Virus record (IMG/VR): IMGVR_UViG_3300030943_000118 | DNA: 31,625 nt | Direction: 5' to 3' (one strand) | Origin: a virus | Translations under genes and position numbers: made by a program | The notes under the pieces: generated by a model | Database searches by the model: none | Told to the model about the DNA's origin: nothing | The model's input: only the letters and a program-made list of their open reading frames with translations | Part shown: in pieces, positions 3,051 through 29,505 of the stretch | Layout of the letters: every line of letters begins with the position of its first letter | Numbering within the stretch: the stretch's first letter is position 1

Positions 3051-3068
3051 ATTACCCTCCGACTCTGC

Positions 3069-6169: not shown

Positions 6170-6884
6170 TCACCACTCCATCATCGTTATTGCTTACATC
6201 ATCGTCCTCATTCAGCTTCTTAGCTTGTGCCTGGATAAGTCCAAGCTTGGCCTGCTGTTCTTCTGTTGCCATATTCATATGCTCCGTGAGCCAGTCAAGG
6301 GCTTTCATACGGTCAGCCAGTTTAATAGAATCGCTTTTCCCTGTCTTGACCTCACTGATTATCGTGCCGTCTATTTGGTCAGAGGGAACAAAAGACATGT
6401 TGTTGATTGTCTCGATTCCGTTATCTGTCTCGACATCTCGCGCTATCCATGTGATGTAGTCCGTCATGTCAGCAAAGGCAATGTCCATGTACTTCTGAAA
6501 GATGTCGGAGGGCTTGAGCATGGCTTGAGAATAGCGCTGTTCCTTGATCTTCATGATTTCATCACGAATCTTGACATTATCCAACAGTCGGGATCCGCAA
6601 GTGCACGCGGTAATGTAATCGCACTCGTAAGCCTTTTGATATGACTTCGTCGCATTAAACGACTTGCCATAATGTAAGCAAAACAATTGCTGCTTGGCTG
6701 TGAGCGATGTATTTGAGATAACCGACTGAACGGCTTCCCTGTTCTTGGAACGTTCCAGTGTTCCAGCGTTCCAACGTTCCTTTGATTTCCAGCCTCTAAC
6801 TGTTCCTGCTGGTATATTTAGCTTTGCGGCGATATCGGCAAGCGACATGCCGGAATCAAATAATGACTTAGCTTCTTCATGCAC
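6132..6884 (-). CDS. terS: terminase small subunit
   Basis: 250 aa with an N-terminal HTH (MSLADIAAKLNIPAGTVRGWK) and the LTAKQQLFCLHYGKSFNATKSYQKAY motif typical of Terminase_2-type small subunits. Apparent GTG start at 6884 with GAGAGGTGAGG upstream. Confidence 0.8.
   Translation of the reverse strand: MHEEAKSLFDSGMSLADIAAKLNIPAGTVRGWKSKERWNAGTLERSKNREAVQSVISNTSLTAKQQLFCLHYGKSFNATKSYQKAYECDYITACTCGSRLLDNVKIRDEIMKIKEQRYSQAMLKPSDIFQKYMDIAFADMTDYITWIARDVETDNGIETINNMSFVPSDQIDGTIISEVKTGKSDSIKLADRMKALDWLTEHMNMATEEQQAKLGLIQAQAKKLNEDDDVSNNDDGVVIVFGRRKDGLST
6744..6784. repeat. palindrome GGAACGTTCC plus four tandem 8-bp GTTCCA-containing units inside terS; candidate pac site
   Basis: Seen in sequence: cttGGAACGTTCCagtGTTCCAgcGTTCCAacGTTCCttt. 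Confidence 0.45.
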
Positions 6885-11473: not shown

Positions 11474-12380
11474 TTATTAAGTCCCTCCATGCGTACCGAA
11501 TCTCCTGACCGTCGCAGGACATCTGTTTGCTTTGTCTGTCAAAAAACAGATCGGCCATTTTGTCCATCACTCCCAGATCCCTGTTTTTGGCAACCTCTAA
11601 AATATTGCTGCACTGTAACAACGTGTGATCTTCGGGCCAGCGAAACAATGTTTTTGCGCATCTCTTAAAATCACTGCTCACTCTGTGAAGTAAAAATACA
11701 TTGTCTGCAGCATTGGTAAGATCAGCGGTGCCGGATATGTCGTCAATTCTCAAGATCCCCGATTCCGTTTTTCGAGGATGAGCAACAAGAACGATATGAA
11801 CATTTGTTTCTTCTGCAAACTTTTTCAAATTCCAAATAAACTCTGTCTGTTTCGCGTTTCGGTTTGCGTCCGATGCTCCAATGTCTATGCTCATCAGATT
11901 ATCCAGGATGATCACATCAACGCCCTTTACCTCCACGCAGTGCCGCAACATCCCAAAAAGTACATCTAGCTGATTCCCGTAATTGTTGTTGTAAACAAAC
12001 ATCCGCTGATCCAGCCACTGTTTGATCGGAGTCACAACCTCCTGCATTACTTTGAAGTAGTTTTCGTGTTTTGTTGCCAGGGTGTAAGATCTTCCTGCGG
12101 CTAACAGGTATGTCCATTCAAAAACCCTTGACTCGTTCATCTCTCCGGAAAACAGAGCCACCTTTTTATTTTCCTGTACTACCTGCAAAGCTATCTGCGT
12201 TAAGATTGTTGACTTGCCTGCTGCGCGAAATCCAGAGAATACAGACATTTCTTTTTTGTTCAGCCCAATGATCCACTTATCAATCAACCAGATGCCTGTT
12301 TTTATTGACACGATCTGGCTTCGGTCTTTGGGCTTTGCGGTCATGCTTGTAAAAAACCACTTGCCTTTATCCTCGTTCAC
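11466..12380 (-). CDS. DnaB-like replicative helicase / RecA-fold ATPase
   Basis: Walker A GFRAAGKST, Walker B VIILDNL; 304 aa; sits between the replisome organiser and SSB. Confidence 0.65.
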   Translation of the reverse strand: MNEDKGKWFFTSMTAKPKDRSQIVSIKTGIWLIDKWIIGLNKKEMSVFSGFRAAGKSTILTQIALQVVQENKKVALFSGEMNESRVFEWTYLLAAGRSYTLATKHENYFKVMQEVVTPIKQWLDQRMFVYNNNYGNQLDVLFGMLRHCVEVKGVDVIILDNLMSIDIGASDANRNAKQTEFIWNLKKFAEETNVHIVLVAHPRKTESGILRIDDISGTADLTNAADNVFLLHRVSSDFKRCAKTLFRWPEDHTLLQCSNILEVAKNRDLGVMDKMADLFFDRQSKQMSCDGQEIRYAWRDLIND

Positions 12381-13072
12381 AAATCAAAGCCCCCTCCTGC
12401 ATTTTTTATCGGTCCTGCCTTTTTTCCACCGCCTTGGTTCAGATACCCCTCAAACTTATTTGAAAACAGTGTTTCCGGTCTCAGGTACTTTTGCATGTCG
12501 GTTCCAGACCATTCAGCAACCTTGACATCGATAACCGTGTAAAAGCTTTCGAGGGTAAATTTTTCATTCATTCTCGCTTTTATCAGGTCTTTGGTTTTTT
12601 GAGAGGTATGCATATAAGATGTTCCGGCTTTCAAGTTTAAGTAATCAACAATGGTTCTGTATGGCAGTCTTTCCTCTCTCTCTTCACTCTCTTTCTTATC
12701 TATAGTTTCAGTTTCAGTTTCAGTTTCCATATGTTGAACATATGATTTACATGTGTTTAACATATCTTTATCATGTGTACCCTTTTTACTTGCTCTGTTC
12801 TCGCTTCTGCTCTCCGAATAGGCAATTCTTCTGTTTGACTCCTTTTCGAGCTTGATGTTGAAGTACAGCCCGTTTTCATCAATTTTGAAATGTTTGTAAA
12901 TGTCTTTATCATATGATTTACACATCTTCAACATATCTTCTTCTGATAATCGCCCGTTTTGATGCTCGTAACACATGATCCTTATGTACTTTCCGACCTG
13001 TTCGTCCGTCATTAACATCGTTCCAGACAAAAAGTCAGAAGTATAAAATAGAAATGCAGGATCTTTTGCCAT
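12377..13072 (-). CDS. replication initiation protein (replisome organiser, DnaD-like C-terminal region)
   Basis: 231 aa; C-terminal LPYRTIVDYLNLKAGTSYMHTSQKTKDLIKARMNEKFTLESFYTVIDVKVAEWSG resembles the conserved C-terminus of phage replisome organisers (from memory); contains internal DNA and protein repeats. Confidence 0.6.
   Translation of the reverse strand: MAKDPAFLFYTSDFLSGTMLMTDEQVGKYIRIMCYEHQNGRLSEEDMLKMCKSYDKDIYKHFKIDENGLYFNIKLEKESNRRIAYSESRSENRASKKGTHDKDMLNTCKSYVQHMETETETETIDKKESEEREERLPYRTIVDYLNLKAGTSYMHTSQKTKDLIKARMNEKFTLESFYTVIDVKVAEWSGTDMQKYLRPETLFSNKFEGYLNQGGGKKAGPIKNAGGGFDL
12705..12947. repeat. iteron-like repeats inside the replisome organiser gene; candidate origin of replication
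   Basis: Seen in sequence: four tandem GTTTCA/GTTTCC hexamers (12705..12728); 13-mer CATATGATTTACA at 12739 and 12910; 10-mer AACATATCTT at 12759 and 12930; both pairs spaced 171 bp, AT-rich. Confidence 0.4.
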
Positions 13073-13606
13073 TTAATTACCTCCCTTCCAGGATGCATTC
13101 ATCCTGTTTATTTCTTCCGGCGTCATGGTCTCTATTCCGATTTCCTTAGCCTCTGATACAACGCCATTGATCAGCGTTGCCATTTGCTTACTGTCGTATA
13201 AACTTGACCCAAAATAGTAAAGTAGCTGTGTTCCCTCCCCGTTCTTTGTCTGCCCTACTTCCTCTGTCAATTTGTAAAGTTGCTTGAACATTTCAACCGC
13301 TTCGTTCTTGACAACAACATAGGTATATCTGCCGTAATCCTTGAGCGCTTTCAAATACAGTTCGTCTTTTGTCGTGTTCAGCACTTCCGCCATTTTCCCG
13401 AGTAGCGCCCACAAATACCCGTTGCTGTCCAGACTTCTTCGCTCCCTGTGTACCTTTATCTCGCAGTCAAGCGCCTTGCCCTTATCCGTTGCTGTCTTGA
13501 GTTCTTCAAGCGATTCAAGGCCGTCTCGCGACTTGAGCGTGATGATAATTTCCGGCTTCATGCCGGCGTTGAATTGTAGGCGAATTTGGCTTGCTTGCGA
13601 TTTCAA
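13073..13606 (-). CDS. hypothetical protein (177 aa), replication/recombination module
   Basis: Tightly packed ORF; no family recognised. Confidence 0.6.
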   Translation of the reverse strand: MKSQASQIRLQFNAGMKPEIIITLKSRDGLESLEELKTATDKGKALDCEIKVHRERRSLDSNGYLWALLGKMAEVLNTTKDELYLKALKDYGRYTYVVVKNEAVEMFKQLYKLTEEVGQTKNGEGTQLLYYFGSSLYDSKQMATLINGVVSEAKEIGIETMTPEEINRMNASWKGGN

Positions 13607-13854
13607 AGATACGACCTCCCAAACTCTTTAATAAAATCATTCCGGCTTCCACGATTCAGTTCATACTCTGTTTGACACATCGCCTTGCACTTGTTCCAAA
13701 ACTCATAATCCTGATGTATGTTCATGTGGCATTCGTGACAGAGGTCAAGCATGTAGTTGTACTTTTCAGATCGCCTTTTATTTGCCGCGTTGAAAATGTG
13801 ATGCCTATCTGTTGCCGTTCTTCCGCAACCCTTGCAGGCTGTCCACTCTTTCAC
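13603..13854 (-). CDS. small HNH-fold zinc-binding protein (putative nuclease)
   Basis: CKGCG...DRHHIFNAANKRR...YNY...LCHECHMNIH fits the CxxC / HH / N / CxxCH pattern of HNH nucleases. Confidence 0.5.
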   Translation of the reverse strand: MKEWTACKGCGRTATDRHHIFNAANKRRSEKYNYMLDLCHECHMNIHQDYEFWNKCKAMCQTEYELNRGSRNDFIKEFGRSYL

Positions 13855-14600
13855 CTTAAGACCGGCGGCACTTCCATTTTCTGCGCCATGTCCTTAAGCT
13901 GGTCGATGTTCAAATCAGTGAGTTTTTTGACTTTTGCATCGAGCTTGTTGTATGCCGTGAGTGCGGTGGAGTAGATGTCATAGCAGAATCCATCTGCAGA
14001 TCCTTTGTCCTTGCCTATGGCGTCGGGATAGAGCAGGTGACCGATATGATTGATAATCTTCTGCTTATCGTCTACGGGAGGCGAGGGAGGCACCGGCGGC
14101 ACTACAGGCGTGATTGTCGCGGTCTGCGGCTTAGGCGTTGTCTTTGGTTTGGTTTCTTCAGGTGTTCCTGCGTCGGGATCCGGCATTTCTTCTGTCGGTA
14201 TGCAAAACACCTGAAATAGTGCGTACTTAAACGCGATTGCCATTGCCTTGTTGCTGCCCTTGTCTCCGGTGTCGTCTGATTCTCCAACCGTTACCGCCTC
14301 AACAAAAGATCCGTCATCGGCATAAAAAGCGAATTTAATTTTGAAGATTGACAGATGCGAGACACCGCCGTTCTTTGTCTCTCTGTCGCTCCTGTTCTGC
14401 TCTAAAACAGAGGGAACAACAAAGACGTGATACTTTGCCAGCATCGGCTGCAATGCGTTCATAACGTCGTCAATACCCCTGTACATGAACCCTTGCTGTA
14501 CATTCTTCTTGCCTTTTGCGACTGCTCCGATTTCGCCAATGATCGAGCATATAGCCGCGTAGATTTTCGGTTCATAAACTTTCAGTGTTTCGGTGCTCAT
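13851..14600 (-). CDS. erf: ERF-family single-strand annealing recombinase
   Basis: YRGIDDVMNALQPMLAKYHVFVVP...GDKGSNKAMAIAFKYALFQVFCIP matches the ERF core as I recall it; Pro-rich linker and C-terminal tail. Confidence 0.7.
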   Translation of the reverse strand: MSTETLKVYEPKIYAAICSIIGEIGAVAKGKKNVQQGFMYRGIDDVMNALQPMLAKYHVFVVPSVLEQNRSDRETKNGGVSHLSIFKIKFAFYADDGSFVEAVTVGESDDTGDKGSNKAMAIAFKYALFQVFCIPTEEMPDPDAGTPEETKPKTTPKPQTATITPVVPPVPPSPPVDDKQKIINHIGHLLYPDAIGKDKGSADGFCYDIYSTALTAYNKLDAKVKKLTDLNIDQLKDMAQKMEVPPVLR

Positions 14601-14602
14601 TT

Positions 14603-15763
14603 TCAGCCCTCCTTGATTTCTCGGTAGCTATATCCCATCTGGTTCAGCATCTCGATTAATGCTTCAATTCTTTCAACCGTGTCCGTGATTGCAATTCTGA
14701 TTGTGCCATTACCCGCCGGTGTTGCCCGTTCATTGACTTCCTCCGGTCCCGGTTCAAAGGCAGGAAAATCAAAATCGTCAGGTGAGAAGTCAGGCGTAGC
14801 AAAGTTATCAATCGGGGGTTCAGGCAGATACTTGAGGAAAGGAATAACGCGAGTAGGCACATCTTCAATGGTTCCGAATCCGACAATCTGCGCTTCCTGT
14901 ATTCCGCTTCTTGTTTCAACGTCTAAAACTTGCCCCGCAAAGTATTCAAATCCATCAGGGATAAGATAGGAATATTTCTGTCCGTCAAATCCTCCCTCAG
15001 GATGTCCGCTCTTGTAATTTACAAATGCTATTTTCTGTAGGGTCGATTCAGCAACGGATTTCGACTCAACCACGGGTTCCGGTATCACTTCGGGTACCGG
15101 CTTGTACACCTGCTTCTGCGCCTCGATCTGCGCTCTCTGCATCTCGATAGCCTTGTGCTTTGCCGCGACGCTTGTAATCGCCTGTGAGGCGTTCAGCGTG
15201 GGTATGTACTCAACAAGGATCTCTGCTTGATTTTCCTGCGTCTTGAACATTTCGAGTTCATCGGCGACCTTGTCGATAAATGCGGCACATTGTTTCTTGA
15301 GCGTCTCGACGTTCGCGGTTTTGGTTATATTCAGCCCGATACGCTCAAATGTTAAGAAGTCAATATTTGGGTAGTTCTCGAGAAAGCCGTCAAAGAATGC
15401 GCGGATGTCTGTCTCTTTGAATGCCTTGATTGCATCCTCGACCGTATCAATCTTTACCTTCAATTGACCGTCGGCATCATCATAAATGTCGGTTATGCAG
15501 GTCTTATAAACCTTGAGGAATTCCTCATATGCTGCCATGTACTTGTTTTTCAGTTCCATGCGCTGCGCTTCAAAGGCTTTCTTCTCGTTGTTGAGGTCGG
15601 CCCGTGCCGCCTTGACGATCTTGACCGTTTCATCGGTGCAGATCATTGACAGGTATTCGGCGACCTTTTTCTGGATCTCTGCCGATTTCGTTTTCAGGTG
15701 CTGCGTAATAATTGGAAGCTGTTCAAGCGTGATCAGTTCGTTAGATGTTTTTTTGGTTGCCAT
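14603..15763 (-). CDS. hypothetical protein (386 aa), recombinase-associated (possibly DUF1351-like)
   Basis: ATG 15763 with GGAGGGG 7 nt upstream; immediately upstream of ERF. Family guess is low confidence. Confidence 0.7.
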   Translation of the reverse strand: MATKKTSNELITLEQLPIITQHLKTKSAEIQKKVAEYLSMICTDETVKIVKAARADLNNEKKAFEAQRMELKNKYMAAYEEFLKVYKTCITDIYDDADGQLKVKIDTVEDAIKAFKETDIRAFFDGFLENYPNIDFLTFERIGLNITKTANVETLKKQCAAFIDKVADELEMFKTQENQAEILVEYIPTLNASQAITSVAAKHKAIEMQRAQIEAQKQVYKPVPEVIPEPVVESKSVAESTLQKIAFVNYKSGHPEGGFDGQKYSYLIPDGFEYFAGQVLDVETRSGIQEAQIVGFGTIEDVPTRVIPFLKYLPEPPIDNFATPDFSPDDFDFPAFEPGPEEVNERATPAGNGTIRIAITDTVERIEALIEMLNQMGYSYREIKEG

Positions 15764-15961
15764 TTAGTTCCCCTCCACTTTGAAATTATCGACGCAGTCA
15801 GCGCAGAACACGCAGCCGCATATCTCGTATCTGGTTTCACCCGTGATGTCTTCGCTGCACTCGTCACATATAATCTTCGGTTCTTCTTTGGGTTCCGGAG
15901 GATCAAGGTATTTATCCTCTGCCCTATCCAACGCGGCCTGTTGTGCGTAATCGTTGTACAT
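15764..15961 (-). CDS. small Cys-rich zinc-binding protein (65 aa)
   Basis: IICDECSEDITGETRYEICGCVFCADCVDNF; GAGGG RBS; directly downstream of the pentapeptide-repeat gene. Confidence 0.5.
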   Translation of the reverse strand: MYNDYAQQAALDRAEDKYLDPPEPKEEPKIICDECSEDITGETRYEICGCVFCADCVDNFKVEGN

Positions 15962-15976
15962 TTTGATTTCCCTCTA

Positions 15977-16741
15977 TTAGTTGTAGTTTTCTGCCTCTTT
16001 CCGTGTAATGAAAAAGTGAATCCCGGTAGAACATTCAATCCATCTATCCTCGTCGAAGTTATCAACACGGACGGTCTCGCCTTTGCGGTAAACAAAACTC
16101 TTGTCATATCCAGAAACCGCTTCATCCGCTCCGATTATTTCGAGCACTACGGCTTCTGAACATCTGCATTTTCGGGTAGTTGCAGAAGATCTCTTTCCGG
16201 TGACCAATAGCTTGACGATCACACCAGATTTTCGAGAATCGTTTCCGTCTCTGGCTGTTTTCCAAGCTATAAAATCGCCTTCTTCGGGGCAGGATAGAGC
16301 GAAAAACGCAGTTGTTTCGTTGTATTCTGCGCGGCTGAGGTCTGCGCTCCTGAGGTCTGCGCGGCTGAGGTTTGCGCGGCTGAGGTCTGCGCTCCTGAGG
16401 TCTGCGCGGCTGAGGTCTGCGCCACTGAGGTCTGCGCGGCTGAGGTCTGCGCTCCTGAGGTCTGCGCGGCTGAGGTTTGCGCGGCTGAGGTCTGCGCGGC
16501 TGAGGTCTGCGCCACTGAGGTTTGCGCGGCTGAGGTCTGCGCGGCTGAGGTCTGCGCTCCTGAGGTCTGCGCGGCTGAGGTCTGCGCTCCTGAGGTCTGC
16601 GCGGCTGAGGTCTGCGCTCCTGAGGTCTGCGAGGCTGAGGTCTGCGCCACTGAGGTTTGCGCGCCTACCGCCGCGATCGTATAGCCATTCTGTATGCAGT
16701 TTTAAAATCTCTTTTAGTTCGTCTGCTGTGTATGTTTTCAA
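15977..16741 (-). CDS. pentapeptide-repeat protein (about 24 A(D/N)LSx units) with an uncharacterised C-terminal domain of about 110 aa
   Basis: ANLSGADLSLADLRSADLSRADLRSADLSRADL... with strict 5-residue period; apparent TTG start with GGAGGG 7 nt upstream. Confidence 0.8.
   Translation of the reverse strand: MKTYTADELKEILKLHTEWLYDRGGRRANLSGADLSLADLRSADLSRADLRSADLSRADLRSADLSRADLSRANLSGADLSRADLSRANLSRADLRSADLSRADLSGADLSRADLRSADLSRANLSRADLRSADLSRAEYNETTAFFALSCPEEGDFIAWKTARDGNDSRKSGVIVKLLVTGKRSSATTRKCRCSEAVVLEIIGADEAVSGYDKSFVYRKGETVRVDNFDEDRWIECSTGIHFFITRKEAENYN
16322..16665. repeat. about 23 tandem near-identical 15-bp units (ctgaggtctgcgcgg and variants) encoding the pentapeptide repeats
   Basis: Seen directly in the sequence; the variants differ at one or two positions. 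Confidence 0.9.
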
Positions 16742-16803
16742 GGTGTTTCCCTCCGTGTTATAATTGTGGTGTCAGTAATTCCCTTTAGCCGTTTGAGTAG
16801 TAA

Positions 16804-17049
16804 TCAGACGGCTTTTTCTTTGGCCTCTTTGTTGGCTTTGAATGCCTCTCTGATTTCGTTTAAACGCGGCTGAAATCTGTTGATCGATGATTCGATGCGC
16901 CCGATGCGATAATCAAGATCGGGAAAACCGTGTTTAGTATTGTCATTTTTGAGATTGATCGTGCGCTGCTTCCCGTCATTCAAAAAAATTAAAGCTATGT
17001 CGAGATCAGCCATTTCGCTTGTCATTGCTAGTATTTCTTCTTCGCTCAT
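16804..17049 (-). CDS. hypothetical protein (81 aa)
   Basis: ATG 17049 with GGAAGGAGA RBS. Confidence 0.55.
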   Translation of the reverse strand: MSEEEILAMTSEMADLDIALIFLNDGKQRTINLKNDNTKHGFPDLDYRIGRIESSINRFQPRLNEIREAFKANKEAKEKAV

Positions 17050-17067
17050 TTGCTTGTCTCCTTCCTT

Positions 17068-17223
17068 TCAAAATCCGTGAAACATCGGGCTAAAGTCGTT
17101 CTCCGGCTTGATCGGGGTACTAATCGATGCGCTCCGGTTTGGTAAAACTTTCAGCCTGTTCTCATAGGCTTTATGGCGACGGTTTGTCAAAAGGATTGTG
17201 ATGATCTGACGGATGATACTCAT
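17068..17223 (-). CDS. hypothetical mini-protein (51 aa)
   Basis: ATG 17223 with AAAGGAGG 8 nt upstream; two further mini-ORFs (17230..17340, 17343..17483) sit upstream. Not in the ORF track. Confidence 0.3.
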   Translation of the reverse strand: MSIIRQIITILLTNRRHKAYENRLKVLPNRSASISTPIKPENDFSPMFHGF

Positions 17224-17484
17224 GTCTGATTACCTCCTTTTCCGTTGATAAAAGAACTTCCCGATATCGTCTGTCTTGATCCCCAGTGTGTCGGCAACCC
17301 CCAGAACAATTTCGAGTTCGAATAGACTTATCTGCTGCATCTCTACCCCTCCATTTCGAATAATGATATCTGCCTTGCTCCCTGCTCCTGATAGCAAATC
17401 TCCATGAGCCGCTTATGTCGCTCTGCCTCCGGCATACCGTCCTTATTTATCACCAGATCTATAAACTCAAAATCAATGTCCATT

Positions 17485-18375
17485 TCAAAACTCCATTTTT
17501 ACCTGTATAGGACGGTTTTCAATGGCTCTACAATTGGCAACAGCTTGTATGTAATAGCTTTCCTTTAGTTCAATTCCTATATGCCTGCGTCCCATTTCAA
17601 TGGCAACATATCCGGTTGATCCAATCCCATCAAATGGGTCTAAAACGATGTCATTTGGATTTGTCCAGAGCTCAATACCCCGGCGAATAACAGATAGTTG
17701 CAAAGGGCAGATATGTTTTTCGTCTTTATCTTCCCTTGCACAATCCTTTTGTAAGGTATCACCCTGCCTTATGTCCATCCAAACAGGTGATGCGTACTGC
17801 TGCCATTTGTCTACCGGGAAAGATTCGTTTGTATGTGTTGTTCTTTCGGGATTGTCACCCGGTTTTCTGAATGTTACCAAATAATCAGGCACGCCCTGTC
17901 TGCTCATGCAAGAGTCTTTTTTGATCTGTTTGTGTAATAGTCCCAGCGCCTTTGTTCTTTGCATGGCAACAACGGGATCTTTCCAAATAACAACCTCAGA
18001 GTGATAGATCATACCGGCCTGCTGCATCCCTCTAATAACATCGCCCCTAAGATCTCTCAGACCTATTACGCCGTCGCGTTCTTTCATCAAAGGCAGATTC
18101 ATGCAATGAACGGAAATCATTCTTCCGGGCATCATGACACGCACCCACTGACGAATCAGAAACTCGTAATGATCCCAAAATTCCGAATATGTGCGGCTGT
18201 TGCCTAAGTCTCGTTCACTGTTTGAATATGTATACAAAGATGCAAAAGGTATGGACGTAATTGAGTAGTGTATAGAGTTATCCGGGATCCCCTGCATGAC
18301 CTCACATGAATCCCCGTTATAAATTGCAAATTTATCTCCAATCTCTTGATTCATTACCTTTATGCTGCCAGCCAT
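17485..18375 (-). CDS. DNA methyltransferase (N6-adenine / N4-cytosine type, beta-class motif order), orphan
   Basis: N-terminal catalytic-type motif SIPF (variant of D/S-PP-Y/F) and C-terminal AdoMet motif LDPFDGIGSTG; no restriction endonuclease gene adjacent. Confidence 0.7.
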   Translation of the reverse strand: MAGSIKVMNQEIGDKFAIYNGDSCEVMQGIPDNSIHYSITSIPFASLYTYSNSERDLGNSRTYSEFWDHYEFLIRQWVRVMMPGRMISVHCMNLPLMKERDGVIGLRDLRGDVIRGMQQAGMIYHSEVVIWKDPVVAMQRTKALGLLHKQIKKDSCMSRQGVPDYLVTFRKPGDNPERTTHTNESFPVDKWQQYASPVWMDIRQGDTLQKDCAREDKDEKHICPLQLSVIRRGIELWTNPNDIVLDPFDGIGSTGYVAIEMGRRHIGIELKESYYIQAVANCRAIENRPIQVKMEF

Positions 18376-19739
18376 ATGGGTATCTCCATTTCTATCTGAG
18401 GGTTATACTCCTCTGTTTCTCGATATGTTTTTCTTACTTCCCTTTCGATGGACGCACGCGAGAATCCGGCCAATTTTTCAAACATCTCAATGGATTGCTG
18501 TTCTTTTCTTTTGATGTTTTCTCGAACGGCGCCCTCTGCTTCTGATGTGATGATGTAAACATTTACCGGCTGTATCTGTCCAAATCTCCAGCATCTGCGA
18601 ATGGCCTGATACATCATTTCGTAACTGTCAGAAAGTCCAACAAAAACCATGTTATTGCACTGCTGCCAGTTCATTCCAAATCCTGCTATCGATGGTTTAG
18701 AAATCATGATCCGAAACTTTTCTTCAGCAAATCCGATTAGACAATCCCTTTTATAGTCTCGATCATCGGATCCTTTTACTTCCGTTCCTCCTGACATTTT
18801 TGTCAGCATTTCGGATTCTGTGTTTAAGTCACACCACAATAACCACTGTCCCGGATCCTTTTTTATTAAGTCAACGGCCATCTGGCAACGGTCCTCTTTG
18901 CTGTCCCTGCGTGCGGTCCTGCGTTCTGTGAGTGTTGAAGCAATTGCCGGTACAAACATCAGCTGCCCGTCTATTTCTCCGTTTTCTGACTCGACTATGA
19001 TTTCTTCAATATTTAATGGAGGTAAATCGTATCCAATGTTTTCATAACCTAAATCAGAAGGTTTTCGAACGACAATAGCCCACTGGCTGATCCATTCCCA
19101 AAACTTATCCTCAGCATGTCCTTTTAAAATCCACTTTGCTGTTTCTCCTCCGTCATGATAGAAAAACGTTGAAAGCATCTCCGTTCTGGACATGACACCC
19201 ATGAATTCAGAATGATTCCCAAGCTCCACATAATCGTTTGGTGCCGGTGTAGCGGAACAAGCGAGCTTATAGGGAGTATCACGAAATGTTGTAATAATTA
19301 ACTCTCTGGTTTTCGAATTGAAATGCTTCAATATTCCTGATTCATCCAGAACTATTCCAGCAAATACAGCAGGATTAAAATGTTCTAACATATCATAGTT
19401 TGTAATGTTTATACCCTGGATAACATCTTCTTGTGTCCGACATACATTGACTTCATATCCAAACTTTATGCCCTCTTTTTTTGTCTGATTGGTTACGGCC
19501 AACGGTGCCAGTATTAATACTGGTTTTCCTGTATGGTTTACAACCTGTTGTGAAAATTCAAGCTGCATAGCGCTCTTTCCGGTTCCTGTGTCGGTAAACA
19601 GACAGTAACGCCCTTTTTTGACAGCCAATGTAACAACGTCTTTCTGCCAATTAAACAGATTGCTATTAATTTCAGTTGGTTCAAATCCACTTGGTGTGAT
19701 GGCAAATCTTTTTGATTCCAAAAATTCTTTATATTTCAC
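18360..19739 (-). CDS. SF2 helicase (SNF2/DEAD-like)
   Basis: Motif I DTGTGKS, motif II VLDESG, motif III SATPAPN, motif VI QAIRRCWRFGQ; GTG start with GGGAGG 7 nt upstream. Confidence 0.8.
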   Translation of the reverse strand: MKYKEFLESKRFAITPSGFEPTEINSNLFNWQKDVVTLAVKKGRYCLFTDTGTGKSAMQLEFSQQVVNHTGKPVLILAPLAVTNQTKKEGIKFGYEVNVCRTQEDVIQGINITNYDMLEHFNPAVFAGIVLDESGILKHFNSKTRELIITTFRDTPYKLACSATPAPNDYVELGNHSEFMGVMSRTEMLSTFFYHDGGETAKWILKGHAEDKFWEWISQWAIVVRKPSDLGYENIGYDLPPLNIEEIIVESENGEIDGQLMFVPAIASTLTERRTARRDSKEDRCQMAVDLIKKDPGQWLLWCDLNTESEMLTKMSGGTEVKGSDDRDYKRDCLIGFAEEKFRIMISKPSIAGFGMNWQQCNNMVFVGLSDSYEMMYQAIRRCWRFGQIQPVNVYIITSEAEGAVRENIKRKEQQSIEMFEKLAGFSRASIEREVRKTYRETEEYNPQIEMEIPIWLAA

Positions 19740-19923
19740 TGTCAGTCCTCCCTCTCGAAAAGCCCGAGTTTTCCGATGCGATCCTTGATCCAGTTTGAAT
19801 AATCTTTGCCAACTTCAAGAAATTCATGCAAATCACGGGTTTTACGGCATGTTCACCATTGTTCTCATAGACAGGAATGAGTTCATTGCTTATAATGTAC
19901 ATATTGATAATCTTTCTGGGCAT
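19729..19923 (-). CDS. hypothetical small protein (64 aa), uncertain
   Basis: ORF with a weak AAGGA RBS; its start region is complementary to the predicted antisense RNA. Confidence 0.25.
   Translation of the reverse strand: MPRKIINMYIISNELIPVYENNGEHAVKPVICMNFLKLAKIIQTGSRIASENSGFSRGRTDSEI
19868..19896 (+). promoter_or_regulatory. plus-strand sigma-A-like promoter TAGACA-N17-TATAAT
   Basis: -35 TAGACA at 19868..19873, 17-nt spacer, -10 TATAAT at 19891..19896. Confidence 0.4.
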
Positions 19924-19958
19924 TGCCCTAGCCGTCCTTGCCGGGCGGCTTTTTTATT
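19903..19958 (+). ncRNA. predicted short antisense RNA (about 55 nt) between the promoter and terminator
   Basis: Promoter and terminator are about 30 nt apart; no RBS-preceded ORF in between; antisense to the early transcript between the Cro-like and helicase genes. Confidence 0.3.
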
Positions 19959-19960
19959 TT
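19930..19960 (+). terminator. plus-strand intrinsic terminator
   Basis: AGCCGTCC-TTGCC-GGGCGGCT hairpin (8 bp, one G-U) followed by TTTTTTATTTT; on the minus strand it has a C-A mismatch and no U-tract. Confidence 0.5.
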
Positions 19961-19965
19961 GTCTG

Positions 19966-20205
19966 TTAAGCTGATTTGGAAAGTCTTTCAGGGGAAAATC
20001 CAAGAAGATAATCAACGGAGCACCCAAACGTATCTGCCATTTTTACAAGATATTCCGACGGACACCGCATATTGTCGGATTCCCACGAAGACAGTGTTTT
20101 CGATGAAATTCCGAGTTCTTTTGCTAGCGTTACCTGCGACTTTCTAAGCCGTACCCTCTCTGATCCAATTCTATTTTCGTTTGCTGAAAATGATGAAGCC
20201 ATTTG
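19966..20205 (-). CDS. XRE-family HTH regulator, Cro-like (first gene of the early operon)
   Basis: HTH LRKSQVTLAKELGISSKTLSSWE and C-terminal ADTFGCSVDYLLG; likely start MASSF at 20205 (AGGAGGGAGG upstream). Confidence 0.75.
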   Translation of the reverse strand, partial: QMASSFSANENRIGSERVRLRKSQVTLAKELGISSKTLSSWESDNMRCPSEYLVKMADTFGCSVDYLLGFSPERLSKSA

Positions 20206-20367
20206 CCTCCCTCCTTTCTCCAAGTCTTTCTTGTAGTCTTGGCATTAGCTTATAACTTAAAATTGTATGTGTCAACGGATTTTAGGAACAATTAAAAGAA
20301 TTATTTGTAGTTTTTATTGTTTTCTACAAATTCTTGTAGTACAATGCGAATACAAGGAGGTGATAGC
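20206..20367. promoter_or_regulatory. divergent switch region with promoters and operator-like repeats
   Basis: Minus-strand -35 TTGACA (20270..20275) with a TATAAG-like -10; plus-strand -10 TACAAT (20340..20345); inverted repeat ATTTGTAG-N13-CTACAAAT (20303..20331); 10-bp direct repeat TTCTTGTAGT at 20228 and 20331. Confidence 0.6.
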
Positions 20368-20721
20368 TTGGCTATACAAATGAGACTTAAGGAATTACGC
20401 AAAAAACGGGGATACACGCAAGTAAGCATGGCGGCCGCTTTGGGCGTAAATTACGGTTCATATCGAAATTGGGAACAGGGCGTAAATCAGCCCGACAATT
20501 ATGATATCGAGAAAATTATTGATCTTTTGAATACAACAGCGGACTACTTATATGGGAGAACAAATAATCCAGAAAGAAGTGTTTCTTATTCTGATCCAGA
20601 TAAGGCTTGGCTTATGGATAAAATAGAAAAATCAGGTAAGGTCGAGTTGTCGCAGATTAGAAGGGTTTGGGAGGCATTTTATGAAGAGCAGAAACGCCCA
20701 AATATCAACGTTTTCAGATAG
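20368..20721 (+). CDS. XRE-family HTH regulator, CI-like repressor candidate (no peptidase domain)
   Basis: HTH LRKKRGYTQVSMAAALGV...; TTG 20368 lies 7 nt after AGGAGG (alternative ATG 20380; ORF-track start 20317). Confidence 0.7.
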   Translation: MAIQMRLKELRKKRGYTQVSMAAALGVNYGSYRNWEQGVNQPDNYDIEKIIDLLNTTADYLYGRTNNPERSVSYSDPDKAWLMDKIEKSGKVELSQIRRVWEAFYEEQKRPNINVFR

Positions 20722-21144: not shown

Positions 21145-21798
21145 CTAAACCCTTACAACTCCCGGATAATCCGGATTGATGCTGATCCACAAATTCGGCT
21201 GATTCTGGATTCTGCCCCAGGTGCCCGATACTTCCGCAATGCCAAGAGTGAGCTTATCCTTAGCGAGAGCAATGTGGTCGCGTGACTCAATGCTTGCGTC
21301 CGGTGTCTTATGTATCCACGTGTCCGCTACTACCTTGATGGCGAATAGGCACGGATCGGCTTCGGGATAGCGCAGAACATAGATAAACGGACTATCGTAA
21401 TACGCCTGTTTGCGGATTTCCCGACCGTTTCCGTCGCCATAGCGACCGTCATAATCGGACTGTGCCTGTACGATCTGACCGTTGCCGATGAAAAACGCCG
21501 CATGTCCGCCCTTTGTTGCTGTTTTCGGACGCAGGAGAATGTCGCCTCTCTGCAAGCCCGCGCCGGTACGAAGATTGATGCGCGATGCAATGTTCTCAAA
21601 TCCTGCCGTAAGCAATGGAGCAAGCATATCGCCCGTATAGGAAGCACCGCCTGTGTTGAATCCTGCCGCTTTGAGTCCGTCAATGACAATCTTCGAGCAG
21701 TCGGTATCTCTGTCACCTCTGCGGGCCTGTGAGTACCCATGATAATTGTCTGACGCTATGCTTTCGGCATATTGTACGGCTTTTTCGATTTTGCTCAT
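21145..21798 (-). CDS. endolysin, NlpC/P60-like cysteine peptidase with a C-terminal binding-type domain
   Basis: Catalytic-type Cys in RDTDCSKIVIDG and His in GGHAAFFIGNG; ATGA overlap with the upstream holin gene. Confidence 0.7.
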   Translation of the reverse strand: MSKIEKAVQYAESIASDNYHGYSQARRGDRDTDCSKIVIDGLKAAGFNTGGASYTGDMLAPLLTAGFENIASRINLRTGAGLQRGDILLRPKTATKGGHAAFFIGNGQIVQAQSDYDGRYGDGNGREIRKQAYYDSPFIYVLRYPEADPCLFAIKVVADTWIHKTPDASIESRDHIALAKDKLTLGIAEVSGTWGRIQNQPNLWISINPDYPGVVRV

Positions 21799-22750: not shown

Positions 22751-24970
22751 TTACATTCTCTGGCCATGTATTGTTCTATAGCTAAAACTTTGATGTGAAC
22801 TTCCTTTTACATTTAGATTTGTACTAGACAACAATGAAAAATTTATTGTTTCACCCACCGAAGCATGTAAACAGAAAGGGATAGAATATACAAACCAACC
22901 ATTCGTATTTACACCAAACAAGGTTTGAAAATTACCCTCTGGTGCTTTTACTGATAAATAAACATCACCGTTTGCCGCCCCTGTAAGAATTGAAAATACT
23001 CCAGAAAAAACTCCAGTAAATGGGCAAACATAAGCAAACTCTGGAAATACCCATTCACTATTTGCCAATGATTGGTTCTCTGCAAACGCTGTAAAAACAG
23101 TCCTGACAAAGGCTTGTCTTGCTATGATTTCACCAGACGCAGCGCCAATAAATGTTGTAGGCATCCAAACTTTCAAGGGCACTGCATTACTTCCCACAGC
23201 CGCAGAACCTCCTGCAACATCCGCAGTGACACCGGTATTAGATAAATCAATGGATTTTAACTCTCTGTACTTTGGACCGCTCCCCTGAGACCATAAATAC
23301 GTAAATTGTAAGGCCAATTGTTTCAAGAAATTGACACCATTATCATTAGAATCTTCTCTCAAAAATGCAGTGCTTACTTTGCCGCCTCTTGTTGCTGCGG
23401 GATTAATAGAGGGCAAAGACGATCGCGCAAAAAAACCTCCCTGATACATTCGCGAAGCTATGGTTTCATAAACCGCAGATAGGTCCGTATTGCTTGTGTA
23501 CCATTGTGTTAACGATTGGGTCTTTATTTCTCCGGTACTTAGATTGAAAAATGACTTCCCGTCTGCGCTGCTAAGCGCGCCTGAAGCCACAATCCACTCT
23601 ACATTGATACCAATAGCAGTGAGTACCCTCGCAAGGATATTGCCTGTTGCATCATAACCAAGCCATGTAACGCCGCCATCTGCAGAATATGTAAAGGTTG
23701 TTGCTGTCTGCCGCCAAATGAAGATACTGTCCGCCCGCAAAGGGTGATCGTGTTGGTAGTAAATGACTGACCCGTCCGGAAGTGTTTCCGATGACGGGTA
23801 AAGCCCCGTTGACTGCGCGGAGAACTCATTAAGTTGAAGCATTGCCTGCTGGTACGTGGTCAGTTTCTGCACCGCGATTTGTTCTTGTTGCGCAATGGCA
23901 GAAAGTTGCTTTTCAGCCGCAGGTTTATACTTTGCTAAAGCTGTTGCCCTGCCAGCCGCCGATAAAACGGAATGACCGCGATATGAGTAATTATGTGTCA
24001 TGATTTTCGTAGTAATGGTTGACGCATCCGGGAGAACTATCGATATAGCATCGGTCGCCAAAAAAGACGGATCACCCTGCAAATCGCAGTCGAAAATATA
24101 GTAGCTTGATGCGCCGATGTCCACCCAAATTCCATTAAGGATCGCCTGAACATTCTGCCCCAACAAAAACGGATTCTCGGCAAGCGATAAACAATAGTTG
24201 TTTGTACCGGCCCTGTAGGTCGTCTGGACGTTGTTCGTGTCCATGGCGACATACTCAACACCGGTCAAACTGATCTGCACGGGATCGCATTTTAGAGAGT
24301 CTCGAAGCGCAGGCGTAATTGTCATAATTGGCGTTGTACCGTACCAAACGAACTCAAGCACGCCCGCCCGGGAGAACCGAGCGACCTTACCGCAGATCAT
24401 GGCCAGATATCCGATAGCATCACGGCAGGTCATTCTCGAGCTCTCGGGAATACCTTCCAAAGTGATTGCGCTGTTTGTTCCGGCTATACCGGTTGTCGTG
24501 ATCCCGCAAGCCAGACAGATTTTGTTAAGCGCCTCACTGATCGAGCACGGGAAAGTAATCCCTGCCAAATAGTAAGGACGCTCTGTCAGCACCATACGGT
24601 CATAGGCTTTTATCGGAATGGTTTTCATCCCGCGTAAGGCCTCGACAATAATAAAGTAGCCAAGGTTTACCCATTCGCGGGCAGCTCCTACCATTAACCC
24701 TACTTGACCAAGCAGTGCGCTATTTTGTAAAGACACATTGTTTAGTTCTCCGGAGAGATTCAATAAGGTCAAATCCAACTCAGACATGACTGTGGTCCCG
24801 ATGGATATCTCACTCCCGGAGGCTGTTGATTCTGTGTATTTCATGGATCCCGCGAGGATGTTTGCGTCCCCCAGTGTAGTATTCGGAGACCCATACACGG
24901 TGAGGGATGCGGCATAATCCCTCGCTATTGTCGGATTGGCCAGAATTGCCAGGTAATCATTTGATGGCAT
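22751..24970 (-). CDS. tail-associated protein (Tal-like; candidate tail endopeptidase / receptor-binding protein)
   Basis: 739-aa ORF after the tape measure and a small tail component; GAGGAG RBS; assignment by size and position. Confidence 0.65.
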   Translation of the reverse strand: MPSNDYLAILANPTIARDYAASLTVYGSPNTTLGDANILAGSMKYTESTASGSEISIGTTVMSELDLTLLNLSGELNNVSLQNSALLGQVGLMVGAAREWVNLGYFIIVEALRGMKTIPIKAYDRMVLTERPYYLAGITFPCSISEALNKICLACGITTTGIAGTNSAITLEGIPESSRMTCRDAIGYLAMICGKVARFSRAGVLEFVWYGTTPIMTITPALRDSLKCDPVQISLTGVEYVAMDTNNVQTTYRAGTNNYCLSLAENPFLLGQNVQAILNGIWVDIGASSYYIFDCDLQGDPSFLATDAISIVLPDASTITTKIMTHNYSYRGHSVLSAAGRATALAKYKPAAEKQLSAIAQQEQIAVQKLTTYQQAMLQLNEFSAQSTGLYPSSETLPDGSVIYYQHDHPLRADSIFIWRQTATTFTYSADGGVTWLGYDATGNILARVLTAIGINVEWIVASGALSSADGKSFFNLSTGEIKTQSLTQWYTSNTDLSAVYETIASRMYQGGFFARSSLPSINPAATRGGKVSTAFLREDSNDNGVNFLKQLALQFTYLWSQGSGPKYRELKSIDLSNTGVTADVAGGSAAVGSNAVPLKVWMPTTFIGAASGEIIARQAFVRTVFTAFAENQSLANSEWVFPEFAYVCPFTGVFSGVFSILTGAANGDVYLSVKAPEGNFQTLFGVNTNGWFVYSIPFCLHASVGETINFSLLSSTNLNVKGSSHQSFSYRTIHGQRM

Positions 24971-24972
24971 AA

Positions 24973-25308
24973 TTACAACTCCTCAAAAGCAATAGAGGAC
25001 TCCCACTGATCATCCATGATCATGTTTTCGTCGCTCGTCCGTACCTTGAAAGTACCCGTCAGCTGACTGCCCCTGCACAGATACGTCATTGTGAAATACG
25101 CACTAGCGATAAGAGCCGCAAAGGCAGTCAGTTCAGCATCGGTAAAAGTAAACTCAACCGAAATCGTCGCTTTCCCGGCTCTCACTCGCTGATCCCAGTC
25201 GATGCCGGTTTCAGAAGTTCCGGATTCGGCAACGACATCTTCTTTGTGCACAGAATATGTGTTAATCATGTTATCTAAATCCGTTGTTCCAATCGTTAAA
25301 ATTGACAT
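24973..25308 (-). CDS. tail component, possibly a short distal tail protein
   Basis: ORF 24973..25317; likely start ATG 25308 (AGGTGA 5 nt upstream) just after the tape measure stop. Confidence 0.5.
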   Translation of the reverse strand: MSILTIGTTDLDNMINTYSVHKEDVVAESGTSETGIDWDQRVRAGKATISVEFTFTDAELTAFAALIASAYFTMTYLCRGSQLTGTFKVRTSDENMIMDDQWESSIAFEEL

Positions 25309-25313
25309 CCATA

Positions 25314-27515
25314 TCACCTGTTTTTCTTAATGGCGTAATTGTCCGCCGCTTTGACAACGATTTCCTCTATCTGATTACCGCCTACATAGACCGGAATAAA
25401 GATGTTCTCCGGCCCTTTTCTCGTGACAGTTTGAGGCAGATTGGCAAGATTGGACATAAATGCCCGGAGCGCCGTTGTCTCGTTTGGTACTGACCTACCG
25501 TAAGCCTGCCCCTGCATCTGCGACACCATGCCGCTTGCAGATACAGCCTGTGCTGCCTTGAGTGCATTCTCAGATGATTCTACTGATGCATCCTCAAGCA
25601 AGTAGGCGTTATCGTCAACGCCCTTTGCCGCACCTGCCGGAATTTGTTTACCGACCTGTTTCGCGAATACCCGCGACGGTGATTTGATTCCAAGAAAATC
25701 TTTAACGGTTTGCAGCGCCTTGGCAGCAGCTTCTTTGGCGGCATCTCCGAGCTTCGAAGCTGCATCCGTGATTCCTTTTTTCACTCCATCGATGATGTTC
25801 TTTCCGAGCGTACCCCAGTCGATTTTCCCCAAGGCTTCCTTGATCTTGTCGAATATTTCGGGTCCTGATTCGGACAGGGCGCTCGCCGCGTCGATGATTC
25901 CAGTTAAGAGGGCTCCTATGATCTCAATAGCGGCTTCTATGATCATCGGGAGCGCATTAATAAGCGCCGTTACAATAGAGATGATGATGTCCGGCACCAT
26001 TTCGATCAGCGCCGGGATTGCGGAAACAAGCCCCTCTATGAGAGCGATAAGAATCTGCACGGCCGTCTCGATAATCATCGGGAGGTTTGCCATTAAGGTG
26101 TCGACTATGGTTGTGATCAATGTGGGAAGCATAGCAACCAGTTGTGGTCTTGCAGATGCTATTCCCGTGATCAGTGCCAAAAGAATCTGAATGGCTGCCG
26201 TGATGATAAGCGGCAGATTGTCGATAAGCACCTGTACGATTGTACCGACAGTGTCAACCATCATCTGAATAAGTTCAGGGATCATCCCTGTGATGCCATT
26301 TACAAGAGCAAGTAGAATCTGAATTCCTGCATCAAGAATTAATGGCAGGTTTTCCATGAGGGTTGATACAACCGTCGTAACGCATGTAACCATGGCGGGG
26401 ATAAGTGTAGGAAGCGCCGCCGCTATGCCCGTGATAAGGCTTGTAAGCAGCGTCATTCCGATAGTAAACAGTAGAGGTAAGTTTGTCGTAATGGTTGTAA
26501 TGAGTCCGGTAACTATTCCGACTCCTGCGGTTGCCAGTGTAGGAAGCTGTGCAATTAAAGCATTAAGCAGTGTAGTAAGAAAGCTATTCGCCATAGTGAT
26601 TACAGCCGGCAGTTGAGCAGTGATCCCGCTAAGGATCTGCCCGACTACTCCGCCGGCCGCACTAATAAGCCCCGGTATGCCGTCCTTGGCGAAAGCATCA
26701 GTTAGAGTTGATACCATGCCGATAGCTTCAGGCAGGAGTGTCTTTGTCAGGCTATCCGAGATAGGCTTAACGACTTCGCCAACCAACGAATTAGCATTGT
26801 CCTTGAGTGTACTGATAAGTCCGTCGAATGTTGTCGACGCGGTTTCCATGCCCTTGTAGAACTGACCGCCCTCGGATGTTGCTGTCTTGAATGCAGCCGT
26901 GAGTTCGTCCGCGGATATTCCGCCCTTGGACATCCTGTCTGTGAGCTCCGACATTGATTCGCCGGTCTTTTCCGAGATGACTTTTAGCGGATTAAATCCT
27001 GCCTCGATCATCATCTGACAAGTCTCGCCGGTGAGCTTACCCATCGAATTGGCTTTACCGAATGCATTTGTAAGGGAACCGAGTTTTTCAGCGTTCCCGA
27101 GAGACACATCTCCGAGCATCGTGAGTATTCCAGTCGAATCATCAGCAGCCACGCCAAAAGCCAATAGGGTAGTTGTCGCCGTTGCAAGATCAGACATCTC
27201 AAACGGAGTAGCAGCTCCCAGCTTCTTGAGTTCATTGACCTTCGCTACAGCTGCCTCTTCGCTCCCAAGCATGGTCTTAAAATTTGCAGTGTAGTTTTCC
27301 ATTTGAGCATTGTATTTAACGCCGGAAACGACCAGAGCGCCCATGCCGGTACCAACTGCTGCAAGTGCTCCGACTGTGATGCCGGCCATGCCCGCCGCGG
27401 CTGATCCGATCGCTCCAAAGCCTTTGGATGCAAACGATCCAAGCCCCGACAAACTAGACTTAAAACCAGACTCATCTAGTTCGGTCCCGATCTTGATTGT
27501 GCCGTCGTTTGCCAT
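25314..27515 (-). CDS. tail tape measure protein
   Basis: 733 aa with Gly/Ala-rich N-terminus, repeated NLPxII...AIQILLALIxGI segments and a C-terminal SPSRV motif; sits between the chaperone genes and the distal tail genes. Confidence 0.85.
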   Translation of the reverse strand: MANDGTIKIGTELDESGFKSSLSGLGSFASKGFGAIGSAAAGMAGITVGALAAVGTGMGALVVSGVKYNAQMENYTANFKTMLGSEEAAVAKVNELKKLGAATPFEMSDLATATTTLLAFGVAADDSTGILTMLGDVSLGNAEKLGSLTNAFGKANSMGKLTGETCQMMIEAGFNPLKVISEKTGESMSELTDRMSKGGISADELTAAFKTATSEGGQFYKGMETASTTFDGLISTLKDNANSLVGEVVKPISDSLTKTLLPEAIGMVSTLTDAFAKDGIPGLISAAGGVVGQILSGITAQLPAVITMANSFLTTLLNALIAQLPTLATAGVGIVTGLITTITTNLPLLFTIGMTLLTSLITGIAAALPTLIPAMVTCVTTVVSTLMENLPLILDAGIQILLALVNGITGMIPELIQMMVDTVGTIVQVLIDNLPLIITAAIQILLALITGIASARPQLVAMLPTLITTIVDTLMANLPMIIETAVQILIALIEGLVSAIPALIEMVPDIIISIVTALINALPMIIEAAIEIIGALLTGIIDAASALSESGPEIFDKIKEALGKIDWGTLGKNIIDGVKKGITDAASKLGDAAKEAAAKALQTVKDFLGIKSPSRVFAKQVGKQIPAGAAKGVDDNAYLLEDASVESSENALKAAQAVSASGMVSQMQGQAYGRSVPNETTALRAFMSNLANLPQTVTRKGPENIFIPVYVGGNQIEEIVVKAADNYAIKKNR

Positions 27516-27559
27516 GCTTCCACCACCTTTTATGTGTGAAAATCATCGGCACTAAGGCA

Positions 27560-27697
27560 CTACTTGATTTTGATTTCGAATTCTTGTTTGCAGTTTCGCC
27601 CCTTGCATCGGACGAAAAGACCTTTACTCTGTCCTGTTTCGTCATACTCAACGGGCATTTCATAGCCACAGTGCGGGCATTTAACTTTCTTTCTCAC
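27560..27697 (-). CDS. zinc-ribbon mini-protein (45 aa, CPHC...C...C)
   Basis: GTG 27697 with GGAGG 6 nt upstream, embedded in the last codons of the Gp15-like gene; MRKKVKCPHCGYEMPVEYDETGQSKGLFVRCKGRNCKQEFEIKIK. Confidence 0.35.
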   Translation of the reverse strand: MRKKVKCPHCGYEMPVEYDETGQSKGLFVRCKGRNCKQEFEIKIK

Positions 27698-28313
27698 TGT
27701 TGACCTCCGCCATTTTACGGTTGATGTGTTTGAGCATATCCGCATCCCGTTTCGCGAGCGCCATTTTGCTATCGGCATTCGTTTCAGATTCGAGAGCGTA
27801 TAGGTTTTTCATGTCGATGTAAAACTTCTTCTGATGTTTGTCCATGCCAGCCGTATCGGTTACCCGGTAGCTCATGATCTTGGACATTTTCAGATCGTCG
27901 TTCAGCGACTCAAACATGCATTTGAACTTCCACCAGTGCAGATCCGCGCTTGCTATGTCCTGCAGGTCGAGCTTGTACTGGGTCTGAAACGCCGAATAGA
28001 TAAATGGCGCGTCCTGCTCAAAGCAGTAGCACCGCTTCGAGTTCGAGGATCCCTTACTTTTACTCTTACTCTTCTTCTCATCCTTGCCGCCCCGGTAGAA
28101 CCACATCATCATTTCAAATGCTTGCGCCGTATCGTCCGGCATATTCTCGCCATAGAATAATTCAAGCGCGGTACCGACTCTGTCAGTGTCGCTCAAGGCG
28201 TTGTCGAAGATGCAGATTTCTATCAGGATAAATGTTCGAAATCCATAATTGACAGGGTAATCGGTGCCGTCGATTGTTACTGACCGAGGGAGTTCGTCAA
28301 TCATGATGTTCAT
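27681..28313 (-). CDS. Gp15-like tail assembly protein
   Basis: 210 aa with a central KSKSKSKGSS low-complexity stretch, between the tail chaperone and tape measure genes; family from memory. Confidence 0.6.
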   Translation of the reverse strand: MNIMIDELPRSVTIDGTDYPVNYGFRTFILIEICIFDNALSDTDRVGTALELFYGENMPDDTAQAFEMMMWFYRGGKDEKKSKSKSKGSSNSKRCYCFEQDAPFIYSAFQTQYKLDLQDIASADLHWWKFKCMFESLNDDLKMSKIMSYRVTDTAGMDKHQKKFYIDMKNLYALESETNADSKMALAKRDADMLKHINRKMAEVNSEKES

Positions 28314-28637: not shown

Positions 28638-28649
28638 AAAATTTCCCTC

Positions 28650-28684
28650 CTCAAAAGGAAAGCGGGGCATATTTCAGCCCCGCC
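28650..28684 (-). terminator. intrinsic terminator / attenuator just downstream of the major tail protein gene
   Basis: Minus strand: GCGGGGC-tgaaatat-GCCCCGC perfect 7-bp stem followed by TTTCCTTTT. Confidence 0.5.
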
Positions 28685-28690
28685 GGTTGA

Positions 28691-29503: not shown

Positions 29504-29505
29504 TT

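Follow-up and report, generated by a model that had tools for sequence, protein, structure and literature searches.

The window analysed here is a stretch of viral DNA of 31,625 nucleotides (IMG/VR record IMGVR_UViG_3300030943_000118). The gene in question lies on its minus strand at 15977..16741, where a run of near-identical 15-bp repeats forms the central part of an open reading frame (ORF). An earlier note, made from the letters of the sequence, had described the product as a phage pentapeptide-repeat protein; its observation was confirmed by the analysis and its interpretation was partly supported. The same protein of 254 amino acids (aa) is also called on contigs of ENA and of the Joint Genome Institute (JGI), and independent assemblies (L001 from ENA, L002 from IMG/VR, L163/L176 from JGI) are 100% identical to the window and carry the same array. 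Tandem Repeats Finder placed the array at 16326..16663, with a period of 15, 22.5 copies, 86% matches and a score of 515. The consecutive A(D/N)Lxx pentapeptides of the earlier reading are present, but the number of canonical units is 22 and not about 24.

The 330 bp covered by these units are composed of only six distinct 15-mers. GCAGACCTCAGCCGC occurs ten times and GCAGACCTCAGGAGC six times, together 16 of the 22 units, and the other four are rarer. Throughout the array alanine is encoded by GCA, leucine by CTC and aspartate by GAC, codons whose usage in the rest of the genome is 36%, 16% and 47%, respectively, and the G+C content is 69% vs 46% for the genome. The uniform codons and the small number of 15-mers indicate that the units were copied as DNA and did not converge at the protein level, in line with the recent expansion proposed earlier. 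The longest exact repeat inside the array is 72 nt, below the assembly k of 127 or 141. Differences from unit to unit are confined to the three outward-facing positions of the pentapeptide. Two long ORFs in other frames over the array, 16101-16763 (+) and 16267-16650 (-), have translations composed of ARLRS... and AQTSA... repeats; a repeat without stop codons gives rise to such frames as by-products, and they were discarded as not being genes.

Pfam searches assigned both parts of the protein. The repeats matched PF00805 (Pentapeptide) with an E-value of 4.5e-37 and 125.6 bits against a gathering cut-off of 20.2. The C-terminal domain, for which the earlier note recognised no match, was identified as PF19062 (DUF5758), a large family, with 1.1e-31 and 109.3 bits (cut-off 26.9), and the match of aa 147-250 spans the whole profile (positions 1-105 of 105). 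The protein thus consists of an N-terminal cap helix, 22 in-register pentapeptides and a C-terminal part of 117 aa, and the order of repeats followed by DUF5758 is kept in homologues. These share the N-terminal start MKTYTADELKEIL (MKTYT...) with the window protein, and the family consensus contains the N-terminal helix motif ELxxILxxHxxWL, which is present in most members. In the AlphaFold 2 (AF2) model the repeats form the expected right-handed quadrilateral beta-helix, with a mean predicted local distance difference test score (pLDDT) of 86-98 per 10-residue block over aa 31-120, followed by blocks of 74 and 69. DUF5758 was modelled at a pLDDT of about 90 as an all-beta domain with a terminal helix. 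A profile search of the PDB sequences returned pentapeptide-repeat chains only, without any match for the C-terminal domain, and DUF5758 is a domain with no solved structural relative. An alignment of 118 DUF5758 sequences, numbered by the window protein, showed 16 invariant and 32 nearly invariant columns. The window protein has the listed residues at the invariant columns, which include K, R, S, T, C, H, W and Y.

The gene is a fresh member of a large, catalogued but unstudied family of virus-borne pentapeptide + DUF5758 proteins, of the type of gp59 of Mycobacterium phage 244. A word-index search with the C-terminal domain alone gave 1,235 proteins, almost all of this architecture, and phmmer against 1.84 billion representatives gave 3,569 hits at E<=1e-3; DUF5758 was located at the C-terminal end in 150 of the 150 phmmer matches listed. 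The longest members were scanned for informative fusions, and only pentapeptide + DUF5758 was found. Stand-alone DUF5758 proteins of 109-119 aa also exist. IMG/VR holds more than 505 family loci. When one genome was taken for each of 185,579 species, 105 loci were counted, mostly in Clostridia, whose prophages are among the carriers of the architecture, with some in Bacteroidota, Saccharibacteria and Rhizobiales. With DUF5758 as tblastn query, 160 records of cultured phages were found, 152 of them cluster E mycobacteriophages in which the gene is annotated as 'pentapeptide repeat protein'. The combination of DUF5758 and pentapeptide solenoid is widespread: phages that infect bacteria of the gut, the rumen and soil commonly have it, as do many cultured mycobacteriophages.

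The cluster E (Kostyavirus) genes, gp59 of phage 244 for example, have the same order of N-terminal segment, pentapeptide beta-helix and DUF5758, and their DUF5758 is 48-49% identical to that of the window. The position of 244 gp59 also resembles that of the window gene, as it lies in the early operon beside the repressor, as the third gene after it. In all six cluster E isolate genomes examined the gene has a fixed length of 281 aa with diverged, non-homogenised units, whereas the array of the window gene is homogenised and varies between assemblies. A search against predicted viral structures, in which one predicted model is compared with another, showed that the DUF5758 fold recurs in further phages and is shared by giant-virus (Mimiviridae-like) proteins, the latter with Foldseek E-values of 1e-7 to 1e-4 and query-length TM-scores of 0.55-0.68. 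The giant-virus matches are named MORN-repeat, RING, HEAT-repeat or pentapeptide-repeat proteins, and their N-terminal scaffolds were judged from these names.

Clustering at 90% protein identity placed the window protein in a group of seven sequences (P0125-P0131), all seven with the same N- and C-terminal sequences and with arrays of different length. Two entries of 254 aa have 22 units, differ just in the translation of the TTG start (M or L) and derive from 6 contigs in total. Two entries of 219 aa have 15 units in different arrangements, one with units 1-15 and the other with units 1-8 plus 16-22. The remaining entries have 209 aa (13 units), 174 aa (6 units, with a linked K->N change in DUF5758) and 164 aa (4 units). 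Flank identity was checked for two of these alleles. In L164, a contig of 29 kb with 4 units, flanks of 2,571 and 3,567 nt match the window without a single mismatch, and no mismatch was seen in the flanks of L177 (15 units) either. Near-identical units whose copy number varies between otherwise identical genomes were thus found, as in a tandem-repeat contingency locus. All allele data come from short-read metagenome assemblies. On/off switching by frameshift does not apply here: with a unit of 15 bp, recombination or slippage between units alters their number without breaking the frame. A length that differs between assemblies of one phage, with an array prone to slippage, is therefore a supported conclusion, in agreement with the changeable copy number predicted by the earlier note. 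The locus shows in-frame resizing of a solenoid inside one phage population, and the family is for this reason a candidate, open to experiment, for a factor that interacts with the host and evolves fast.

Variation of the same kind is seen in other parts of the family. Many members carry homogenised arrays of 4 to 31 units with mean pairwise unit identities of 0.85-0.93, and the 'flavour' of the unit is specific to the lineage. The unit number is 13 in L035 and 27 in L032, although the flanks of the two agree at about 97-98%; for L011 and L013, with about 99% identity, it is 22 and 23.

The window represents a complete siphophage genome of about 31.5 kb that was assembled as a circle. Its ends carry an identical direct repeat of 127 nt (1-127 and 31499-31625), as is typical of an assembly closed into a circle at k=127, from which completeness is concluded. 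Nearly all genes are on the minus strand. The early operon begins at a cro-like gene opposite the divergent repressor and continues with an SNF2-type helicase, an N6/N4 DNA methyltransferase, four small ORFs, the repeat-protein gene and a cysteine-rich ORF, after which follow DUF1351, ERF, NinB, the replication initiator, DnaB and SSB. The location in the early region near an orphan methyltransferase, stated earlier, was thus correct, with four small ORFs in between. A related phage (L170-L175, JGI 3300025888 / 3300025846 and others) shares the cysteine-rich ORF, DUF1351, ERF and DnaB, and two small ORFs occupy the place of the repeat-protein gene. Conserved partner genes were searched for with 13 window proteins by tblastn against 78 related loci and with Pfam on 189 neighbouring ORFs, and none was found; the neighbours belong to generic early-region families alone (helix-turn-helix proteins, SSB, annealing proteins, methylases). 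The gene is an accessory gene of an early lytic operon: the related phage keeps the cysteine-rich ORF, DUF1351 and ERF without it, and no neighbour is conserved.

For the six cluster E orthologues, the ratio of non-synonymous to synonymous polymorphism (pN/pS) was 2.44 in the repeats vs 0.35 in DUF5758, and 16 of the 18 variable repeat residues are outward-facing.

Only one experimental function of a phage pentapeptide-repeat protein was found in the literature searched. Gene 24_60 of Vibrio phage 24 encodes such a protein, its repeat region is hard to assemble, and a phage from which the gene has been deleted is highly sensitive to the RexAB-like Sucellos system (bioRxiv 10.1101/2024.07.02.601686). 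As in the window gene, repetition at the DNA level defeats assembly. A second comparable gene is Orf-232 of Salmonella phage ST64T (L186:3087-3785), located in the P22-like early-left operon between ral and gene 17. Like the window protein, Orf-232 of ST64T and of phage L belongs to an early accessory region and begins with an N-cap helix of the same motif (ADLSKILEEHKVWI), after which comes a homogenised array of ADLRG units; unlike it, Orf-232 has a different C-terminal domain, which gave no hit in the DUF5758 search. The difference in Orf-232 between the independently isolated and sequenced phages L and ST64T is exactly one 15-bp unit (bioRxiv 10.1101/2020.10.05.325894). By this comparison, early phage proteins composed of a cap, a homogenised pentapeptide array and a variable C-terminal domain may form a wider class.

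The reading that explains these results best, to which a probability of about 0.4 was given, is that the gene belongs to the DUF5758 family, has an unstable array and encodes an early host-takeover or counter-defence effector that works through protein contacts and is not a mimic of the Qnr/MfpA type. DUF5758 would be the constant functional core, while the rigid solenoid, whose length and surface vary, would serve to bind proteins or as a spacer. Purifying selection acts on the domain, which also occurs on its own and appears to be joined to other repeat scaffolds in giant viruses; it therefore probably binds a widely shared partner or ligand. Such a partner would be present in mycobacteria and Clostridia alike, and also in amoebae should the matches in giant viruses prove true. 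A nucleotide- or nucleic-acid-like ligand is suggested by the basic, Ser/Thr, Cys and His residues that are invariant in the domain. The protein would be made early in infection, would be dispensable for the basic phage cycle and would most likely act on a host factor in this early phase, as a host-takeover or counter-defence effector. A generic anti-defence role of the repeat protein would be plausible.

A more far-reaching version is regarded as doubtful. According to it, the family is a widespread virus-borne effector that extends from phages to giant viruses, DUF5758 is a new fold that holds a universal ligand or partner and the hypermutable array serves as a phage contingency locus. If the last point were true, every population would hold standing variation in the length and surface of the effector, by which host immunity, RexAB-like abortive-infection systems for instance, might be evaded or engaged.

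Several results weigh against an effector of this kind. Neither experiment nor annotation gives a function for DUF5758, and the domain, widespread as it is, is absent from the literature searched and without a resembling solved structure. The evidence for the proposed ligand consists of conserved residues. A Cys3-His zinc site considered for the domain was weakened as a candidate, as the cysteine of the CPEEG motif is replaced in cluster E (PPAEG) and a site with four ligands is therefore not universal. Across the related loci, genes for defence or anti-defence are not regularly found next to the repeat-protein gene, and PADLOC gave zero hits. Vibrio 24_60 is an analogue only; no Vibrio phage is among the 160 records that match DUF5758 by tblastn. 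The selection signal on the solenoid is weak: with 6 sequences, the comparison of variable codon columns in cluster E was not significant (Fisher p=0.11), and the positive-selection test for the pair L026/L047 was negative, without an excess (0.26 vs 0.16). The length variation of the array could be neutral, and the short alleles might have been produced by collapse in low-k assembly rounds.

The first of these last two points leads to the alternative that survives best, a possible though on the whole unlikely explanation in which the array is mutationally unstable and tolerant of length, and the protein has a housekeeping role in the replication/recombination module next to DUF1351 and ERF. 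The distance between N-cap and DUF5758 is stepped by 5 aa and whole coils are not preferred (unit counts modulo 4: 26/19/18/15), unit numbers range over the family from about 2 to 31 or more, and there are DUF5758 proteins that stand alone. The repeats of L026/L047 are under purifying selection, and genes for SSB, single-strand annealing proteins and DnaB are frequent neighbours. However, the related phage retains the recombination module without the gene, and the neighbours are not conserved. Unit differences limited to outward-facing positions, the pN/pS of 2.44 in the cluster E repeats and homogenised unit types that differ by lineage also argue against this alternative.

The reliability of the short alleles themselves has to be considered as well. 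About 11 of the 24 contigs with the upstream gene stop inside the array, and five more reach it from downstream and end there; contigs that end within the array, from either side, include L165-L169, L178, L179 and L003. The array is a systematic break point of short-read assembly, and the gene lengths given in catalogues for this family are therefore unreliable. In practical terms, such arrays break short-read assemblies or may collapse in them. It can be argued on this basis that the phage always has 22 or more units and that the array collapsed in some samples, particularly as a deletion between identical blocks of the 22-unit allele would be enough to yield any of the short ones. This is considered unlikely. 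From k>=38 and k>=54, values well under the final k, the variant contigs hold k-mers that do not occur in the genome with 22 units, which makes plain collapse at 127 or 141 improbable. Five lengths and two distinct 15-unit arrangements were recovered from two data sources, the 6-unit allele is linked to an amino-acid change, and the one-unit difference between phages L and ST64T described above was found in independently isolated and sequenced phages.

The earlier note had proposed a DNA mimic like Qnr, MfpA or AlbG that binds gyrase/topoisomerase or a DNA-targeting defence enzyme. With Qnr, MfpA, AlbG and McbG the window protein shares the right-handed quadrilateral beta-helix of A(D/N)LXX repeats, and the PDB sequence hits include 3pss, 2xtw, 2bm4 and 6zt4. 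Expression is expected to be early, the orphan methyltransferase is close by, and gyrase modulators encoded by phages are known (review PMC10886550). In Qnr and MfpA the surface mimics the DNA helix and C-terminal helices dimerise (PMC10886550), while the window protein lacks an acidic, DNA-like surface and has the beta-rich DUF5758 in place of the dimerising helix. Its repeat domain contains 18 Asp and 18 Arg, with a net charge of 0 and a pI of 6.5, and is thus not strongly electronegative; over the family the charge per unit is not conserved and ranges from -0.87 to +0.58. Nor is the length of the solenoid fixed, with 4 to 22 units within one phage. The NCBIfam scores were far under the family cut-offs, with 41.4 bits for Qnr (cut-off 240), 26.1 for MfpA (360) and 35-43 for QnrA/B/S (450-460). 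In addition, it is DUF5758 and not the solenoid that is the conserved part of the family. Only the fold is common to both and the other traits are missing, so that the window protein was not filed in the Qnr/MfpA group and the proposal is now regarded as quite improbable. That the gene encodes an exclusion or defence factor against competing phages is very unlikely, despite its accessory, moron-like distribution, its fast evolution and the presence of pentapeptide repeats in at least one defence system, Hailong (PMC13586616), since expression from a prophage is not expected for a lytic early operon on the strand opposite to the repressor, and the protein has no PADLOC match and no membrane or nuclease domain.

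The positions of the features are collected in Table 1.

Table 1. Positions of the repeat-protein gene, its parts and other features of the window
Feature	Position	Strand	Basis or remark
Capsid and packaging genes	731-6884		
Cysteine-rich ORF, 65 aa	15764..15961	minus	ORF list; CxxC...CxCxxCxxC; weak PHROG_54 DksA-like zinc-finger hit, 1.2e-4
Whole ORF, pentapeptide-repeat + DUF5758 protein, 254 aa	15977..16741, stop included	minus	ORF list; TTG start; PF00805 + PF19062
DUF5758, aa 147-250	15992..16303	minus	all-beta + terminal helix; CPEEG, KRSSATxRKCR, RWxECSxGIHFFxTR
22 in-frame 15-bp units, A(D/N)Lxx, aa 28-137	16331..16660	minus	Tandem Repeats Finder, unit table; copy number variable
N-terminal cap region, aa 1-27	16661..16741	minus	helix aa 6-22 (AF2 model); motif ELxxILxxHxxWL
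Ribosome-binding site GGAGGG	16749..16754	minus	7 nt upstream of TTG start; read from sequence
Orphan N6/N4 DNA methyltransferase	17485-18375		
SNF2-type helicase	18360-19739		
Divergent repressor	20317-20721	plus	
Lysin	21145-21798		
Tail genes	22751-31220		

The cysteine-rich mini-protein, previously regarded as an adjacent protein without recognisable match, is encoded by a real ORF and probably is a zinc finger. Only four homologues were found in 5.8 billion clusters. A relative with 83% identity lies directly upstream of DUF1351-ERF in the related phage without the repeat-protein gene, which indicates that the mini-protein belongs with the recombination module and does not travel with the repeat-protein gene.

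A megablast search of 13000-20000 against 50,697 phage records gave no match, and no cultured close relative is therefore available. The helicase and methyltransferase ORFs share an overlap of 16 nt (18360-18375), which suggests translational coupling of the pair, and the PHROG_16 profile 'DNA helicase' also hits the C-terminal portion of the methylase. The promoter and terminator scan of the window, taken as a whole, was not above chance. A terminator-like hairpin is present at 16787-16813 on the plus strand (AGCCGT...ACGGCT followed by TTTTCT); its orientation opposes the genes, and it covers the stop of the 81-aa ORF directly upstream of the repeat-protein gene. The protein of 1,182 aa encoded upstream of the lysin in the related phage L170-L175 matches Dockerin_1 weakly, a hint of a host of the cellulolytic Clostridia type. 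Short tandem repeats of 11 and 22 bp at 12724-12778 (TTTACATGTGTTGAACATATA, 2.5 copies), within the replication-initiator ORF 12377-13072, look like iterons of a replication origin.

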